Shown: piece after piece, positions 11,186 through 36,750 of the stretch
Numbering within the stretch: the first letter of the stretch is position 1
Layout: each line of letters starts with the position of its first letter
Assembly: GCF_013167455.1 (NCBI RefSeq)
Contig: NZ_CP038328.1
From: Escherichia coli O157:H7
Lineage (GTDB): Bacteria > Pseudomonadota > Gammaproteobacteria > Enterobacterales > Enterobacteriaceae
Direction: 5' to 3' (one strand)
Length of the DNA stretch: 64,000 nucleotides
Notes under the pieces: generated by a model
Databases searched by the model: none
The model's input: the letters and a program-made list of their open reading frames with translations, nothing else
What the model was told of the DNA's origin: nothing
Position numbers and translations under genes: made by a program

Positions 11186-11296
11186 TAAAAAGTATTCAGA
11201 ATCAGGCCGGGGCGTATCGCGCTCCGTAAACACGGTCGTACATCCAGCCGGTAGCCTGGTTCCTTGCATTGAGTGATGTACGGAGTTTATAGAGCA

Positions 11297-13360: not shown

Positions 13361-13876
13361 ATGGATTACTTCACCCTCTTTGGCTTGCCTGCCCGTTATC
13401 AACTCGATACCCAGGCGCTGAGCCTGCGTTTTCAGGATCTACAACGTCAGTATCATCCTGATAAATTCGCCAGCGGAAGCCAGGCGGAACAACTCGCCGC
13501 CGTACAGCAATCTGCAACCATTAATCAGGCCTGGCAAACGCTGCGTCATCCGTTAATGCGCGCGGAATATTTGCTTTCTTTGCACGGCTTTGATCTCGCC
13601 AGCGAGCAGCATACTGTGCGCGACACCGCGTTCCTGATGGAACAGTTGGAGCTGCGCGAAGAGCTGGACGAGATCGAACAGGCGAAAGATGAAGCGCGGC
13701 TGGAAAGCTTTATCAAACGTGTGAAAAAGATGTTTGATACCCGCCATCAGTTGATGGTTGAACAGTTAGACAACGAGACCTGGGACGCGGCGGCGGATAC
13801 CGTGCGTAAGCTGCGTTTTCTCGATAAACTGCGAAGCAGTGCCGAACAACTCGAAGAAAAACTGCTCGATTTTTAA
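13361..13876 (+). CDS. hscB: J-domain co-chaperone
   Basis: 171 aa ORF with J-domain HPD motif (QYHPDKF). Confidence 0.93.
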
Positions 13877-13892
13877 TTTCTGGAAGCTAAAC

Positions 13893-15743
13893 ATGGCCTT
13901 ATTACAAATTAGTGAACCTGGTTTGAGTGCTGCGCCGCATCAGCGTCGTCTGGCGGCCGGTATTGACCTGGGCACAACCAACTCGCTGGTGGCGACAGTG
14001 CGCAGCGGTCAGGCCGAAACGTTAGCCGACCATGAAGGCCGTCACCTGCTGCCATCTGTTGTTCACTATCAACAGCAAGGGCATTCGGTGGGTTATGACG
14101 CGCGTACTAATGCAGCGCTCGATACCGCCAACACAATTAGTTCTGTTAAACGCCTGATGGGACGCTCGCTGGCTGATATCCAGCAACGCTATCCGCATCT
14201 GCCTTATCAATTCCAGGCCAGCGAAAACGGCCTGCCGATGATTGAAACGGCGGCGGGGCTGCTGAACCCGGTGCGCGTTTCTGCGGACATCCTCAAAGCA
14301 CTGGCGGCGCGGGCAACTGAAGCCCTGGCAGGCGAGCTGGATGGTGTAGTTATCACCGTTCCGGCGTACTTTGACGATGCCCAGCGTCAGGGCACCAAAG
14401 ACGCGGCGCGTCTGGCGGGCCTTCACGTCCTGCGCTTACTTAACGAACCGACCGCTGCGGCTATCGCCTACGGGCTGGATTCCGGTCAGGAAGGCGTGAT
14501 CGCCGTTTATGACCTCGGTGGCGGGACGTTTGATATTTCCATTCTGCGCTTAAGTCGCGGCGTGTTTGAAGTGCTGGCAACCGGCGGTGATTCCGCGCTC
14601 GGCGGCGATGATTTCGACCATCTGCTGGCGGATTACATTCGCGAGCAGGCGGGCATTCCTGATCGTAGCGATAACCGCGTTCAGCGTGAACTGCTGGATG
14701 CCGCCATTGCAGCCAAAATCGCGCTGAGCGATGCGGACTCCGTGACCGTTAACGTTGCGGGCTGGCAGGGCGAAATCAGCCGTGAACAATTCAATGAACT
14801 GATCGCGCCACTGGTAAAACGAACCTTATTGGCTTGTCGTCGCGCGCTGAAAGACGCGGGTGTAGAAGCTGATGAAGTGCTGGAAGTGGTGATGGTGGGC
14901 GGTTCTACTCGCGTGCCGCTGGTGCGTGAACGGGTAGGCGAATTTTTCGGTCGTCCACCGCTGACTTCCATCGACCCGGATAAAGTCGTCGCTATTGGCG
15001 CGGCGATTCAGGCGGATATTCTGGTGGGTAACAAGCCAGACAGCGAAATGCTGTTGCTTGATGTGATCCCACTGTCGCTGGGCCTCGAAACGATGGGCGG
15101 CCTGGTGGAGAAAGTGATTCCGCGTAATACCACTATTCCAGTGGCCCGCGCTCAGGATTTCACCACCTTTAAAGATGGTCAGACGGCGATGTCTATCCAT
15201 GTAATGCAGGGTGAGCGCGAACTGGTGCAGGACTGCCGCTCACTGGCGCGTTTTGCGCTGCGTGGTATTCCGGCGCTACCGGCTGGCGGTGCGCATATTC
15301 GCGTGACGTTCCAGGTCGATGCCGACGGTCTTTTGAGCGTGACGGCGATGGAGAAATCCACCGGCGTTGAGGCGTCTATTCAGGTCAAACCGTCTTACGG
15401 TCTGACCGATAGCGAAATCGCTTCGATGATCAAAGACTCAATGAGCTATGCCGAGCAGGACGTAAAAGCCCGAATGCTGGCAGAACAAAAAGTAGAAGCG
15501 GCGCGTGTGCTGGAAAGTCTGCACGGCGCGCTGGCTGCTGATGCCGCGCTGTTAAGCGCCGCAGAACGTCAGGTCATTGACGATGCTGCCGCTCACCTGA
15601 GTGAAGTGGCGCAGGGCGATGACGTTGACGCCATCGAACAAGCGATTAAAAACGTAGACAAACAAACCCAGGATTTCGCCGCTCGCCGCATGGACCAGTC
15701 GGTTCGTCGTGCGCTGAAAGGCCATTCCGTGGACGAGGTTTAA
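13893..15743 (+). CDS. hscA: Hsp70-family chaperone for Fe-S cluster assembly
   Basis: ORF track frame 13839..15743; start chosen at [10 protein letters not shown] (616 aa); Hsp70 motifs [15 protein letters not shown]. Confidence 0.94.
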
Positions 15744-15744
15744 T

Positions 15745-16080
15745 ATGCCAAAGATTGTTATTTTGCCTCATCAGGATCTCTGCCCTGATGGCGCTGTTCT
15801 GGAAGCTAATAGCGGTGAAACCATTCTCGACGCAGCTCTGCGTAACGGTATCGAGATTGAACACGCCTGTGAAAAATCCTGTGCTTGCACCACCTGCCAC
15901 TGCATCGTTCGTGAAGGTTTTGACTCGCTTCCAGAAAGCTCAGAGCAGGAAGACGACATGCTGGACAAAGCCTGGGGACTGGAGCCGGAAAGCCGTTTAA
16001 GCTGCCAGGCGCGCGTCACCGACGAAGATTTAGTGGTCGAAATCCCGCGTTACACGATCAACCATGCGCGTGAGCATTAA
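15745..16080 (+). CDS. fdx: [2Fe-2S] ferredoxin
   Basis: 111 aa ORF with adrenodoxin-type Cys ligands (CxxxxxCxxC...C). Confidence 0.93.
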
Positions 16081-16091
16081 CAGAGGTTAGT

Positions 16092-16292
16092 ATGGGACTT
16101 AAGTGGACCGATAGCCGCGAAATTGGCGAAGCACTGTACGATGCGTATCCCGATCTTGATCCGAAAACGGTTCGATTCACCGATATGCATCAGTGGATTT
16201 GCGATCTGGAAGATTTCGACGACGACCCGCAGGCATCCAACGAGAAAATCCTCGAAGCGATTTTGTTAGTCTGGCTGGACGAGGCCGAATAA
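16092..16292 (+). CDS. iscX: Fe-S assembly protein IscX
   Basis: 66 aa acidic [27 protein letters not shown]. Confidence 0.92.
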
Positions 16293-16299
16293 TTTCCGC

Positions 16300-16445
16300 G
16301 TCATGCTTCACGCCGCAGATGCGTTGGCTGCGCTCGTTCACCCCAGTCACATAGTTATCTATGCTCCTGGGGCTTCACTCACTTGCCGCCTTCCTGCAAC
16401 GCGAATCATTTAGCGGAAAAATCCTGGGGCTGCCAACTGGCGGCC
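16300..16445. repeat. ERIC (enterobacterial repetitive intergenic consensus / IRU) element
   Basis: Reverse complement of 16331..16380 is gagtgaagccccaggagcatagataactatgtgactggggtgaacgagcg, matching the ERIC core ...CCCCAGGAGC...GTGACTGGGGTGAGCG; sits between iscX and pepB. Confidence 0.7.
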
Positions 16446-16469
16446 CTTTTACAAAGAAGGATAACTAAA

Positions 16470-17753
16470 ATGACAGAAGCGATGAAGATTACCCTCTCTA
16501 CCCAACCTGCCGACGCGCGCTGGGGAGAAAAAGCAACTTACAGCATTAATAATGACGGCATTACCCTGCATTTGAACGGGGCAGACGATCTGGGGCTGAT
16601 CCAGCGTGCGGCGCGCAAGATTGACGGTCTGGGCATCAAGCATGTTCAGTTAAGCGGTGAAGGCTGGGATGCGGATCGATGCTGGGCATTCTGGCAAGGT
16701 TACAAAGCCCCGAAAGGCACGCGTAAAGTGGAGTGGCCGGATCTGGACGATGCCCAGCGCCAGGAACTGGATAACCGCCTGATGATCATCGACTGGGTGC
16801 GTGACACCATCAACGCACCGGCAGAAGAATTGGGACCATCGCAACTGGCACAGCGTGCTGTTGATCTGATCAGCAACGTCGCGAGCGATCGTGTGACTTA
16901 TCGGATCACCAAAGGCGAAGATCTGCGTGAGCAAGGTTATATGGGGCTGCACACCGTCGGACGCGGTTCAGAACGTTCTCCGGTATTGCTGGCGCTGGAT
17001 TACAACCCAACTGGCGATAAAGAAGCGCCAGTGTACGCGTGCCTGGTAGGTAAAGGTATCACTTTTGACTCCGGCGGCTACAGCATCAAACAGACTGCGT
17101 TTATGGACTCGATGAAGTCGGACATGGGCGGCGCGGCAACGGTTACCGGGGCGCTGGCATTTGCCATTACGCGCGGACTGAACAAGCGCGTGAAGCTGTT
17201 CCTCTGCTGTGCGGATAACCTGATTAGCGGCAATGCGTTCAAGCTGGGCGATATCATCACTTATCGCAACGGTAAAAAAGTTGAAGTGATGAACACTGAT
17301 GCCGAAGGGCGCCTGGTGCTTGCCGATGGTCTGATTGATGCCAGTGCGCAGAAACCGGAAATGATCATTGATGCGGCGACCCTCACCGGGGCGGCGAAAA
17401 CTGCGCTGGGTAATGATTATCACGCGCTGTTCAGTTTTGACGATGCGCTTGCCGGTCGTTTGCTGGCGAGTGCCTCACAAGAGAACGAACCATTCTGGCG
17501 TCTGCCGCTGGCGGAATTCCACCGCAGCCAGCTGCCGTCTAACTTTGCCGAACTGAACAATACCGGAAGCGCGGCGTATCCGGCAGGCGCGAGCACGGCA
17601 GCGGGCTTCCTGTCGCACTTTGTTGAGAACTATCAGCAAGGCTGGCTGCATATCGACTGCTCGGCGACTTACCGTAAAGCGCCGGTTGAACAGTGGTCTG
17701 CGGGTGCTACGGGACTTGGTGTGCGCACGATTGCTAATCTGTTAACGGCGTAA
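16470..17753 (+). CDS. pepB: Aminopeptidase B (M17 family)
   Basis: ORF track frame 16383..17753; start chosen at [10 protein letters not shown] (427 aa); M17 motif NTDAEGRL. Confidence 0.93.
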
Positions 17754-17860: not shown

Positions 17861-17895
17861 CTTGTGCCCCGAACGTTGAATGAATTGTGGTTCTT

Positions 17896-18672
17896 ATGTC
17901 CGAAACAAAAAATGAACTTGAAGACCTGCTGGAAAAAGCAGCAACCGAACCGGCGCACCGCCCGGCCTTTTTCCGTACTCTACTGGAATCCACCGTCTGG
18001 GTGCCTGGTACGGCGGCGCAGGGCGAGGCTGTGGTTGAAGATAGCGCGCTTGATTTACAGCACTGGGAAAAAGAAGACGGCACCAGCGTCATTCCTTTTT
18101 TTACCTCGTTAGAAGCACTTCAACAGGCGGTTGAAGACGAACAGGCATTTGTCGTAATGCCCGTTCGCACATTGTTTGAGATGACCCTTGGCGAAACGCT
18201 CTTCCTTAATGCCAAACTGCCGACCGGTAAAGAATTTATGCCGCGTGAAATCAGTTTGTTGATTGGTGAAGAGGGAAATCCGCTGAGCAGCCAGGAAATC
18301 CTGGAAGGCGGTGAATCGCTGATATTATCGGAAGTCGCAGAGCCGCCAGCACAAATGATTGATTCACTCACCACCTTATTTAAAACCATTAAGCCTGTGA
18401 AGCGTGCTTTTATTTGTTCAATTAAAGAGAACGAAGAGGCACAGCCTAATTTACTTATTGGCATTGAAGCCGATGGTGATATCGAAGAAATTATTCAGGT
18501 GGCGGGAAGTGTAGCGACCGATACATTACCTGGCGATGAACCAATCGATATTTGTCAGGTGAAAAAAGGGGAAAAAGGAATTAGCCACTTTATTACCGAA
18601 CATATTGCGCCATTCTATGAACGTCGCTGGGGTGGTTTTTTGCGTGACTTTAAACAGAATCGGATAATCTAA
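17896..18672 (+). CDS. sseB: Protein SseB (enhances serine sensitivity)
   Basis: ORF track frame 17887..18672; start chosen at MSETKNELEDL (258 aa). Confidence 0.88.
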   Translation: MSETKNELEDLLEKAATEPAHRPAFFRTLLESTVWVPGTAAQGEAVVEDSALDLQHWEKEDGTSVIPFFTSLEALQQAVEDEQAFVVMPVRTLFEMTLGETLFLNAKLPTGKEFMPREISLLIGEEGNPLSSQEILEGGESLILSEVAEPPAQMIDSLTTLFKTIKPVKRAFICSIKENEEAQPNLLIGIEADGDIEEIIQVAGSVATDTLPGDEPIDICQVKKGEKGISHFITEHIAPFYERRWGGFLRDFKQNRII

Positions 18673-19000
18673 AATATGCCGCCCCAAAGGGCGGCATTCG
18701 GGCTTACCTGCTGCTCTGAAGGTTGTTAATCACCAGTAAATTGTCGCCGGAGAGACTCCGGTTATTATTTACCTCGGTTAACAGCGCACCAGAAACAATA
18801 AGTACGATACAGAAGCACCGTATCTTCATTGTGCGGTCCATGCGAAGACCGCATCACGACAGCACCACTGGCGATATTGCCGCGATAGCAAGCACTGTGG
18901 GGTGCCTGTATTTACGGTCATGGAACATTCTTTCCTAAAGCCAGCGCCCGTTTGCGAGACGGCGAAAAGGGCCATTAAGAATAATACTCTCATGTTTGAA
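18670..19000 (-). ncRNA. ryfA: Candidate RyfA-type small RNA locus; boundaries and strand approximate
   Basis: 499 bp tail-to-tail sseB-sseA intergenic region; hairpin at 18677..18695 followed by T-run on minus strand; RyfA is recalled to map between sseA and sseB in E. coli. Confidence 0.3.
18705..18830 (-). CDS. Candidate small hydrophobic protein (41 aa), type I toxin-like (TimP-like?)
   Basis: Hand translation of the minus strand gives MKIRCFCIVLIVSGALLTEVNNNRSLSGDNLLVINNLQSSR; hydrophobic N-terminal 20 aa; no Shine-Dalgarno, and a 7 bp stem (tgcggtc/gaccgca) ends 3 nt before the ATG; below the ORF-track size cutoff. Confidence 0.35.
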
Positions 19001-19125
19001 TAATTACTCTGTTTATTATCTTGGCACAGCCAGGCATAAAAGAGAGTATTTCAACACTGTGGGGTGCCTGCGTTGCTCCGGCAACACAAGTCAACCTGCT
19101 GGAAAGGCCGCGAACCAGACCAGCA

Positions 19126-19158
19126 ATAAAAAACCGCCAAATTCGGCGGTTTTTTATT
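19126..19158. terminator. Bidirectional rho-independent terminator downstream of sseA
   Basis: aaaaaaccgccaaattcggcggtttttt: GC stem flanked by A-run and T-run. Confidence 0.7.
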
Positions 19159-19171
19159 GCCTGTAAAAAGC

Positions 19172-20017
19172 TTATTTCAATGGCTCAACCGGTAAATCTG
19201 CCCGCGCGCCCCATTCACTCCATGCGCCGTCGTACAGTTTCACGTTTGGCACATCCAGCGTCGCGAGTGCCAACAAAACCACGGCTGCTGTTACACCAGA
19301 GCCGCAGCTGACGATAATTGGTTTGTCATAGCTGACGCCGCGACCAAAAAATATCGCATCCAGTTCATCGGTCGTTTTTAGTTCGCCTTCGCGCACCAGT
19401 TCCGTCCACGGAACGTTCAATGCACCGGGAATATGTCCGCGACGTAAACCTGGGCGAGGTTCATCAACTTCTGCGTTAAAACGTGCAGCCGGGCGGGCAT
19501 CAATAATTTGCGCCGTATTTTCATGGCTTGCCAATAACACATCGGTTACTTTCACCACTGCTTCAGGATTAAACGCGGCGTTAAACTCTCCTTCCGGCAG
19601 CTCTACTGCACCTTCTTCTAACAACAGATCATCGCGCTGCCAGCCTGCAAGTCCACCCCCCAGAATCGACACTTTCTCTACACCAAAGGTGCGCAGCATC
19701 CACCATGCTCGTGGGGCTGAGAAAAGATTACCTTCGTCATAGACAATCAGGTGCTTATCCTGGTTAACGCCTAATTCACGCATCGCCACGGCGAACGTTT
19801 CCGGGCGCGGCAGCATGTGCGGAAGCGGGGAAGTGTGATCAGAAAGCGCTTCGATATCAAAAAACACTGCGCCGGGAATATGTCCATTCAGATACTCCTG
19901 AGCAACGTTACGATCTTCCTGTCCAGGCGACGCCATGCGGGCATCGATAATCTGAATTTCCGGGTCATCAATATGTTCGGCGAGCCAGTCGGCTCCTACA
20001 AACCATGTCGTGGACAT
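19172..20017 (-). CDS. sseA: 3-mercaptopyruvate sulfurtransferase (tandem rhodanese domains)
   Basis: ORF track frame 19172..20176; start chosen at MSTTWFVGADWL (281 aa); catalytic Cys loop VSCGSGVTA. Confidence 0.9.
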   Translation of the reverse strand: MSTTWFVGADWLAEHIDDPEIQIIDARMASPGQEDRNVAQEYLNGHIPGAVFFDIEALSDHTSPLPHMLPRPETFAVAMRELGVNQDKHLIVYDEGNLFSAPRAWWMLRTFGVEKVSILGGGLAGWQRDDLLLEEGAVELPEGEFNAAFNPEAVVKVTDVLLASHENTAQIIDARPAARFNAEVDEPRPGLRRGHIPGALNVPWTELVREGELKTTDELDAIFFGRGVSYDKPIIVSCGSGVTAAVVLLALATLDVPNVKLYDGAWSEWGARADLPVEPLK

Positions 20018-35537: not shown

Positions 35538-36656
35538 ATGCATAACCAGGCTCCAATTCAACGTAGAAAATCAACACGTATTTACGTTGGGAATGTGCCG
35601 ATTGGCGATGGTGCTCCCATCGCCGTACAGTCCATGACCAATACGCGTACGACAGATGTCGAAGCAACGGTCAATCAAATCAAGGCGCTGGAACGCGTTG
35701 GCGCTGATATCGTCCGTGTCTCCGTACCGACGATGGACGCGGCAGAAGCGTTCAAACTCATCAAACAGCAGGTTAACGTGCCGCTGGTGGCTGACATCCA
35801 CTTCGACTATCGCATTGCGCTGAAAGTAGCGGAATACGGCGTCGATTGTCTGCGTATTAACCCTGGCAATATCGGTAATGAAGAGCGTATTCGCATGGTG
35901 GTTGACTGTGCGCGCGATAAAAACATTCCGATCCGTATTGGCGTTAACGCCGGATCGCTGGAAAAAGATCTGCAAGAAAAGTATGGCGAACCGACGCCGC
36001 AGGCGTTGCTGGAATCCGCCATGCGCCATGTTGATCATCTCGATCGCCTGAACTTCGATCAGTTCAAAGTCAGCGTGAAAGCGTCTGACGTCTTCCTCGC
36101 TGTTGAGTCTTATCGTTTGCTGGCAAAACAAATCGATCAGCCGCTGCATCTGGGGATCACCGAAGCGGGTGGCGCGCGCAGCGGGGCAGTAAAATCCGCC
36201 ATTGGTTTAGGTCTGCTGCTGTCTGAAGGCATCGGCGACACGCTGCGCGTATCACTGGCGGCCGATCCGGTCGAAGAGATCAAAGTCGGTTTCGATATTT
36301 TGAAATCGCTTCGTATCCGTTCGCGAGGTATCAACTTCATCGCCTGTCCGACCTGTTCGCGTCAGGAATTTGATGTTATCGGTACAGTTAACGCGCTGGA
36401 GCAACGCCTGGAAGATATCATCACTCCGATGGACGTTTCGATTATCGGCTGCGTGGTGAATGGCCCGGGTGAGGCGCTGGTTTCTACACTCGGCGTCACC
36501 GGCGGCAACAAGAAAAGCGGTCTCTATGAAGATGGCGTGCGCAAAGACCGTCTGGACAACAACGATATGATCGACCAGCTGGAGGCACGCATTCGTGCGA
36601 AAGCCAGTCAGCTGGACGAAGCGCGTCGAATTGACGTTCAGCAGGTTGAAAAATAA
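35538..36656 (+). CDS. ispG: 4-hydroxy-3-methylbut-2-en-1-yl diphosphate synthase (MEP pathway)
   Basis: 372 aa ORF; C-terminal Cys ligands CPTCSR...C. Confidence 0.94.
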
Positions 36657-36750
36657 TAACGTGATGGGAAGCGCCTCGCTTCCCGTGTATGATTGAACCC
36701 GCATGGCTCCCGAAACATTGAGGGAAGCGTTGAGGGTTCATTTTTATATT
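36657..36750 (+). ncRNA. sroE: Possible SroE sRNA (3'UTR-derived, ispG-hisS intergenic region)
   Basis: Assigned by position only: SroE is recalled to lie between ispG (gcpE) and hisS; hairpin gggaagcgcctcgcttccc is present. Confidence 0.3.

Follow-up and report, generated by a model that had tools for sequence, protein, structure and literature searches.

An old ERIC element abutting the iscX stop codon of Escherichia coli: conservation across genera, polymorphism within the species and a proposed role as an mRNA-stability hairpin

The ERIC or IRU elements, miniature inverted-repeat elements of enterobacteria, have been known since 1990-91, and those of E. coli and Salmonella are reportedly treated by Sharples and Lloyd in 1990, by Hulton, Higgins and Sharp in 1991 and by Wilson and Sharp in 2006. 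Stop-abutting ERICs in Yersinia enterocolitica, said to carry the label 'B' for their orientation in the work of De Gregorio and colleagues of 2005, form a particularly relevant subset; we take the orientation of the copy described below as matching theirs. These Yersinia copies start at the stop codon of the upstream gene, are co-transcribed with it and have their AU-rich arm on the 3' side. The reviews that discuss De Gregorio 2005 attribute to them destabilisation of the mRNA and dependence on RNase E, effects known only from that system. The canonical ERIC is 127 bp long (PMC2229807; PMC2267715), and 19-21 copies are catalogued in E. coli K-12 (PMC2267715). ERIC/IRU copies are imperfect palindromes with a conserved central core, lie between genes inside transcription units, are detectable in about a dozen copies per genome, differ in presence between strains, and occur with internal insertions of about 70 bp as well as internal deletions. 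The Correia/NEMIS elements of Neisseria and the REP/BIME elements of E. coli are likewise small palindromic intergenic repeats in operons, and as RNA hairpins they influence the processing or the stability of mRNA; however, they are unrelated to ERIC in sequence, and neither needs proximity to a stop codon. In Correia elements RNase III cuts the paired terminal repeats, whereas REP elements are stem-loops of about 35-40 nt that act as barriers to 3' exonucleases.

The copy considered here lies in a 64,000-nucleotide stretch of E. coli O157:H7 DNA (assembly GCF_013167455.1, contig NZ_CP038328.1), referred to as the window, between iscX and pepB at the end of the isc operon. The features of this locus are as follows:

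13839-15743, + strand: hscA (open reading frame list)
15745-16080, + strand: fdx (open reading frame list)
16092-16292, + strand: iscX coding sequence (open reading frame list; RefSeq annotation of the identical K-12 sequence)
16290-16292, + strand: TAA stop codon of iscX; the next base is ERIC base 1
16293-16469: iscX-pepB spacer, 177 nt
16293-16419, - strand (canonical, ERIC2-forward orientation): ERIC element, 127 nt, with borders from the alignment with six other E. coli loci
16293-16318, + strand: left terminal inverted-repeat arm of ERIC, 26 nt, 73% complementary
16341-16372, + strand: central core inverted repeat of ERIC, CCCCAGTCACATAG / CTATGCTCCTGGGG, the region of the ERIC1R and ERIC2 primers
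16341-16354 and 16359-16372: the two core arms, from an inverted-repeat search
16391-16392: approximate insertion point of the 67 bp that distinguish a long allele, from the allele alignment; the insert is missing in the window
16394-16419, + strand: right terminal arm of ERIC, holding the AU-rich CGAAUCAUUUA (16402-16412)
16427-16450, + strand: GC-rich stem-loop GGGCUGCC-AACU-GGCGGCCC followed by UUUU, from RNA folds, outside ERIC
16457-16461, + strand: Shine-Dalgarno sequence AAGGA of pepB, read from the sequence
16470-17753, + strand: pepB (open reading frame list), with its ATG at 16470-16472 (RefSeq annotation of the identical K-12 sequence)
17887-18672, + strand: sseB (open reading frame list)

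Membership in the ERIC family was tested without recourse to a remembered consensus, by searching the 127-nt element against 5,426 complete E. coli genomes, in which it matched a median of 12 places per genome. Six of these copies (yjbE-yjbF, uhpC-uhpT, acs-yjcH, dxs-yajO, ybhI-ybhJ and pgk-fbaA), taken from genomes that lack the iscX-pepB copy, were aligned jointly with the window. This alignment showed that homology begins at 16293 and stops at 16419, exactly 127 nt, with a mean pairwise identity of 77% within the element that drops to 23% in the flanks. The window copy agrees with the consensus of the six others at 84% of positions (107/127), and an nhmmer search returned the iscX-pepB copy with E=1.6e-37. 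It shares 19/22 positions with the ERIC1R primer and again 19/22 with ERIC2 read as its reverse complement (primer sequences from PMC3696847), while the ybhI-ybhJ copy in the same alignment matches both primers at 22/22. Hence 16293-16419 is, with virtual certainty, a full-length member of the ERIC/IRU family; it shares with the described copies all the traits listed above and differs from them in nothing essential, its core being of the sub-type CACATAGTTATCTATG and not the primer-type CACTTACTTATGTAAG. The initial annotation had proposed an ERIC at 16300-16445 on the reverse strand, filling most of a 177-bp spacer, and had named a poor full-length alignment to the consensus as what would speak against it. 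The alignment is good over all 127 of the 127 nucleotides, the spacer measures 177 nt, ERIC covers 72% of it, and the strand was called correctly, because ERIC2 stands as its reverse complement on the + strand; only the borders need correction, as they missed the first 7 nt of the element and added 26 nt (16420-16445) that do not belong to it. ERIC lies 0 nt from the TAA of iscX. Its left flank is the TA of this stop codon and its right flank AA (16420-16421), whereas other copies end in TATAC...GTATA; between occupied and empty alleles the flanking bases have diverged too far for a TA target duplication to be rebuilt. K-12 carries the window copy at 100% identity; its spacer lies at NC_000913.3 2656359-2656535 on the minus strand, and in the RefSeq record this spacer is without any annotated feature. 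At Rfam gathering thresholds no family covers the spacer, and a permissive scan recovers only sub-threshold ERIC-like 'sRNA' families. Neither blastn nor nhmmer detected a further ERIC copy within the 64-kb window.

The element is predicted to form a long hairpin on either strand, with fold z-scores of -4.8 for the + strand and -6.8 for the - strand; 0/200 shuffled sequences folded as well, and the untranscribed strand reaches -79.5 kcal/mol against -65.1 kcal/mol for the transcribed one. The consensus structure of seven paralogous copies has 32 pairs, 11 of them with compensatory changes. In an alignment of 11 orthologs standard pairs occupy 94.3% of cells, compared with 35-50% when the partners are slid, and six pairs are altered on both sides (e.g. 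CCGCG/CGCGG to TCGCG/CGCGA, TTGCG/CGCAA or CCACG/CGTGG); compensatory changes in the terminal arms fall at pairs 4-124, 5-123 and 6-122. The covariation score was reached by 0/500 shuffles, slid and shuffled controls that leave phylogenetic relatedness in, so that the covariation of the orthologs supports upkeep of the hairpin, short of proof. Positions 106-117 of the element are almost invariant among the 11 orthologs. A comparison of the arms gave no asymmetry that could serve as a strand-specific signal (19 vs 17 variable columns). As both strands fold, the untranscribed one better, and the arms are equally conserved, the constraint is not assignable specifically to RNA.

To place the element in its wider distribution we scanned species-representative genomes with a degenerate pattern of the PepB N-terminus, which recovered 91 loci, and delimited the iscX-pepB spacer in 72 of them. 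An ERIC or a remnant of one occupies this spacer in about 22 of the 72 species, and in 45 the spacer is empty and 48-70 nt long. The occupied spacers include: 1) a full ERIC in 9; 2) a long form in 2, E. whittamii and Leclercia adecarboxylata; 3) a centrally deleted ERIC in Salmonella enterica diarizonae; and 4) remnants of hardly more than the terminal arms in about 10, namely the Klebsiella oxytoca group, K. indica, Kluyvera cryocrescens and K. intermedia, together with Kluyvera genomosp. 1, Enterobacter JUb54 and Raoultella BIGb0138. Each begins with the base that follows the iscX stop codon, and all stand in the same orientation and carry common locus-specific signatures, which differ from other ERIC copies in the same species; the iscX-pepB ERICs are therefore orthologous, and they extend over about seven genera. 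Occupied and empty sites occur side by side within Citrobacter youngae, Enterobacter, Kluyvera and Leclercia. Intact orthologs are on average 86% identical, against 56% at the four-fold degenerate sites of the adjacent pepB; between E. coli and other genera the corresponding values are 87-91% for ERIC and 45-52% for the synonymous (four-fold) sites, and between Citrobacter Res13 and Kluyvera g3 they are 98% and 55%. Along the identity profiles the maximum, 95-97%, lies on the spacer, and the flanking genes iscX and pepB reach no more than 74-86%. Since this island stops at the spacer, constraint is favoured over transfer of a longer tract, and horizontal transfer, considered as the source of the high inter-genus identity of ERIC, is unlikely given that the island does not extend into iscX or pepB.

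Within E. coli the locus could be compared in 5,425 genomes, of which 3,288 (~61%) carry an ERIC-bearing spacer and about 2,137 (~39%) an empty one of 57-58 nt, which bears out the strain variability anticipated for this intergenic length. Three alleles account for these counts: the 127-bp window allele, carried by about 2,863 genomes (K-12 and O157:H7 among them); a long allele with an additional 67 bp inside the right half of ERIC in 425 genomes; and the empty allele, found among others in ST131 and BL21(DE3). The empty allele further differs in its iscX stop codon (TGA instead of TAA), in the loop and 3' arm of the downstream stem-loop, and by a 9-nt indel. In view of these differences, the empty and occupied alleles are old haplotypes, with no recent gain or loss of the element behind them. 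In strain YSP8-1, which has the empty allele, the sequence otherwise shows 0-2 differences per 200 nt from the window, all differences clustering at 16283-16456, so that the allele sits on a recombinant tract of less than about 620 bp. The iscX-pepB alleles are old and are swapped by recombination on short tracts, without any sign of recent transposition. Internal insertions in ERICs form a class described earlier, into which the 67-bp insert fits. It is present in a single copy per genome; a relative of 81% identity sits at the equivalent internal position in a different ERIC, close to mnmH, and the insert looks like a site-specific secondary insertion. Inserts of this kind, 67-68 bp, consist of several mini-hairpins (loci L001 598-666, the long allele, L012 495-568, L055 and L092). 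Deletions of 60-75 bp in ERICs are attributed to Wilson and Sharp in a mention in PMC7566269. A rare fourth allele was seen in strain HH97 (L013 636-700), in which the left half of ERIC is swapped for unrelated sequence and the right arm and the hairpin are retained.

Downstream of ERIC the spacer contains a separate structure, a stem-loop proper at 16427-16446 followed by UUUU, which ends 23 nt before the pepB ATG and 10 nt before the pepB Shine-Dalgarno sequence. A hairpin search covered 65 enterobacterial iscX-pepB spacers, namely those of the window and of the ST131 allele and the first 63 to be delimited, and recovered it in 64; a compensatory variant, GGGCTACC/GGTAGCCC, occurs among them. 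As it is found with or without ERIC, the stem-loop is an older feature independent of the element; between isc and pepB it probably serves either as a weak terminator or as a hairpin with a stabilising effect. Terminator scanning misses it because its T-run is only 4 long. Among orthologs, the short non-ERIC stretch that leads from the element to the stem-loop diverges freely. Two further observations concern the pepB start region. In the predicted fold UCCU at 16422-16425, just 5' of the stem-loop, pairs with the AAGGA at 16457-16461 (unpaired probability ~0.23); this UCCU flank is peculiar to the occupied allele of Escherichia; neither the empty allele nor other genera have it. Immediately after the U-tract, ACA at 16451-16453 corresponds to position -19 of pepB, the MazF processing position given for this gene (PMC5001579).

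A promoter and terminator scan of 15700-16900 returned no site in the spacer on either strand, its only hit being one weak site inside pepB. PMC4055776, citing Giel et al. 2006, describes iscR mutants in which yfhJ (iscX)-pepB-sseB is derepressed along with isc, and gives the co-derepression of pepB and sseB with isc for both E. coli and Yersinia. Because no promoter-like site is seen and these genes are co-derepressed, the most plausible view is that a single long transcript runs through ERIC and includes it as an internal spacer, with transcription itself taken from the literature. The element would then be at once part of the isc 3' UTR and of the pepB 5' leader, two placements that the initial annotation had offered as alternatives. 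We found no report in the literature of a 3' end, a small RNA or an RNase E site in the iscX-pepB spacer.

The arrangement resembles that of the stop-abutting Yersinia ERICs in its start at the upstream stop codon, in its apparent co-transcription and in the placement of the AU-rich CGAAUCAUUUA, which forms the 3' arm on the mRNA and is a candidate for the RNase E site of the Yersinia model. The same orientation rule emerged in a sample of 11 independent loci: four of five stop-abutting ERICs are oriented as in the window (those after iscX, after ybhI, after iscS in Kluyvera georgiana and after iscR in Enterobacter RIT418), whereas all six of those lying 9-118 nt from the upstream stop are inverted relative to it (Fisher p=0.015). 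The iscR-iscS copy of Enterobacter RIT418 has the same junction as the iscX-pepB copy, TAA directly followed by TTT..CGTCAT. When a ribosome footprint on 16278-16305 was imposed in the folding model, the unpaired probability of 16402-16412 rose from 0.56 to 0.76 and that of the terminal CGGAAA from 0.19 to 0.58, with the core hairpin and the downstream stem-loop intact. This modelled occlusion fits the published Yersinia scheme, with a modest predicted effect on exposure; the AU-rich motif of the window copy, however, reads GAAUC where the family consensus has GAAUU, which counts against the scheme. In such a scheme a ribosome terminating on iscX would cover the left arm and melt the base of the hairpin, as this arm starts at the iscX stop codon; with the base melted, RNase E would gain access to the AU-rich right arm; and cleavage there could make the isc segment upstream and the pepB-sseB segment downstream independent of each other in stability. 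By analogy with Yersinia, then, the element would most likely be transcribed along with isc, pepB and sseB and, as a hairpin in their common RNA, modulate the stability of that mRNA segment by segment. The best explanation overall, which we consider probable, is an old conserved ERIC after the iscX stop codon, upstream of a separate stem-loop and proposed to act as an mRNA-stability hairpin. That the element measurably alters the stability of the isc or pepB transcript is a narrower claim by analogy, to which we give somewhat less than an even chance.

Several other readings of the element have to be weighed against this proposal, of which two would assign it a conventional genetic function. 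Being a strong hairpin just behind iscX that takes up most of the spacer before pepB, ERIC might be expected to terminate the isc operon or to bear the pepB promoter. The ERIC stem, however, has no U-tract, and downstream there is a distinct conserved stem-loop that does have a U-tract and is present even in species without ERIC; together with the result of the 15700-16900 scan and the expression of pepB in many species with a spacer of 50-60 nt, this makes a terminator or promoter function quite improbable. Even less credible, in our judgement, is that ERIC encodes a small protein or an independent small RNA of the kind represented by the ERIC-derived transcripts in Rfam. Open reading frames inside ERICs have been noted in reviews, passages of PMC2229807 among them, and the window copy has one (36-aa ORF, 16303-16413) that is open in most orthologs. 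Yet its variable columns are distributed 11/16/16 over the codon positions, its ATG at 16303 was seen to have no Shine-Dalgarno-like sequence upstream, Kluyvera has a broken frame, its stop codon is lost in a metagenome-derived copy (MAG_OH, L024), and it is interrupted by the +67 insert and by central deletions; we rejected it as a small protein, there being no coding signature. On the RNA side, the Rfam model RF02818 (V_AS5, Vibrio RNA AS5) aligns end to end, model 1-129 of 129 with 16294-16418 on the - strand (E=8e-9), and CssrA and Ysr49 match weakly. The scores are nevertheless far under the gathering thresholds (44.9 bits against 96 for RF02818, which is evidently itself an ERIC-derived Vibrio transcript), and no promoter-like site is found on either strand.

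The remaining two readings accept the element as a conserved or once mobile piece of DNA and dispense with a role in the transcript. It could be a neutral relic of a selfish mobile element, left by one insertion at a TA in the iscX stop region, without a role and slowly being lost. Such a history would accommodate its absence from about 2,137 of the 5,425 E. coli genomes and from 45 of the 72 species, where the flanking genes are unchanged and a short spacer is kept, as well as its erosion in many lineages on several independent occasions (the central deletion in Salmonella diarizonae and the arm-only states of the K. oxytoca group, Kluyvera, JUb54 and BIGb0138); being missing in ~39% of E. 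coli genomes and in 45/72 species, ERIC is dispensable, which also counts against the proposed stability role. A roleless sequence is nevertheless at odds with intact copies that are 86% identical where synonymous sites are at 56%, with the sharp identity island, and with stem pairing upheld by compensatory substitutions next to non-ERIC bases that diverge freely, and we regard the neutral relic as unlikely, though it is the most serious of the competing accounts. Conservation of a hairpin might also be secured at the level of DNA, by hairpin-templated quasi-palindrome correction, by gene conversion, or through a role in DNA binding or recombination, with no RNA function at all. The better fold of the non-transcribed strand and the equal conservation of the arms are in keeping with this, as are about 10 cells in which a C-A mismatch on the transcribed strand corresponds to a G-U pair on the other, and the similarity of ERICs between genera is out of step with that of pepB, as in the Res13 and Kluyvera g3 pair (98% vs 55%). 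Conversion from paralogs, on the other hand, is contradicted by the locus-specific signatures that orthologs share and same-species paralogs do not, and the orientation bias at stop codons (p=0.015) is a property of transcripts; upkeep at the DNA level thus appears rather improbable, more so than the relic.

The mRNA-stability hairpin remains the preferred reading, and its novelty should be seen in proportion: since the family is long known and the copy is in the K-12 reference genome, the iscX-pepB ERIC itself is already known. What we add is modest: comparative evidence that the iscX-pepB copy is of great age, has orthologs across genera, stands under strong constraint and is maintained as a multi-allelic polymorphism; the cross-genus orthology and the strength of conservation may overlap with Wilson and Sharp 2006. 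Thus a housekeeping operon for Fe-S cluster assembly carries in its last spacer a structural polymorphism of three states, of which the occupied one is conserved across genera about as a functional RNA would be. A more far-reaching scenario, which we advance only tentatively and hold to be well short of even, is that of a domesticated mobile element: one insertion would have predated the split of Escherichia, Salmonella, Citrobacter, Klebsiella-Raoultella, Enterobacter, Kluyvera and Leclercia, the hairpin would have been kept by purifying selection as a translation-coupled switch setting the ratio of isc to pepB-sseB, and the empty and +67-nt alleles would persist with it in a long-lived trans-genus polymorphism. 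If the balance between isc and pepB-sseB does shift with the allele, the occupied strains K-12 and O157 would differ from the empty strains ST131 and BL21 in post-transcriptional control, and the natural alleles represent a ready-made experiment on transcript balance. The correct family call in the initial annotation also illustrates that an ERIC can be recognised from its nucleotides alone.

ERICs were encountered in further spacers of the isc-pepB-sseB region: in iscR-iscS of Enterobacter RIT418, in iscS-iscU of Kluyvera georgiana, in iscA-hscB of Salmonella diarizonae, Klebsiella indica, Enterobacter JUb54 and Pseudenterobacter, and just past sseB in E. whittamii. These copies lie at L100 2871-2995, L090 826-949, L083 4455-4567, L096 4638-4749, L058 6300-6424, L060 6493-6605 and L055 3259-3430. 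The isc-pepB-sseB operon seems to be a recurrent ERIC target. A contig assigned to 'Chryseobacterium sp. 18061' (L080) contains an enterobacterial iscX-pepB spacer with 3 differences over about 76 nt from that of Citrobacter sp. 18056 (L079), a strain from the same study, and the Chryseobacterium assembly is likely contaminated. Elsewhere in the window, matches at Rfam gathering level are the iscRS stability element at 11186-11295, ryfA at 18671-18975 on the - strand and sroE at 36656-36747. The ryfA/timP-sseA region, at about 18893-19300 of the window, is strongly strain-variable in E. coli: 369 alignment columns differ between the window and YSP8-1, and the timP-sseA gap measures 662 nt in one E. 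coli strain and 336 nt in another.
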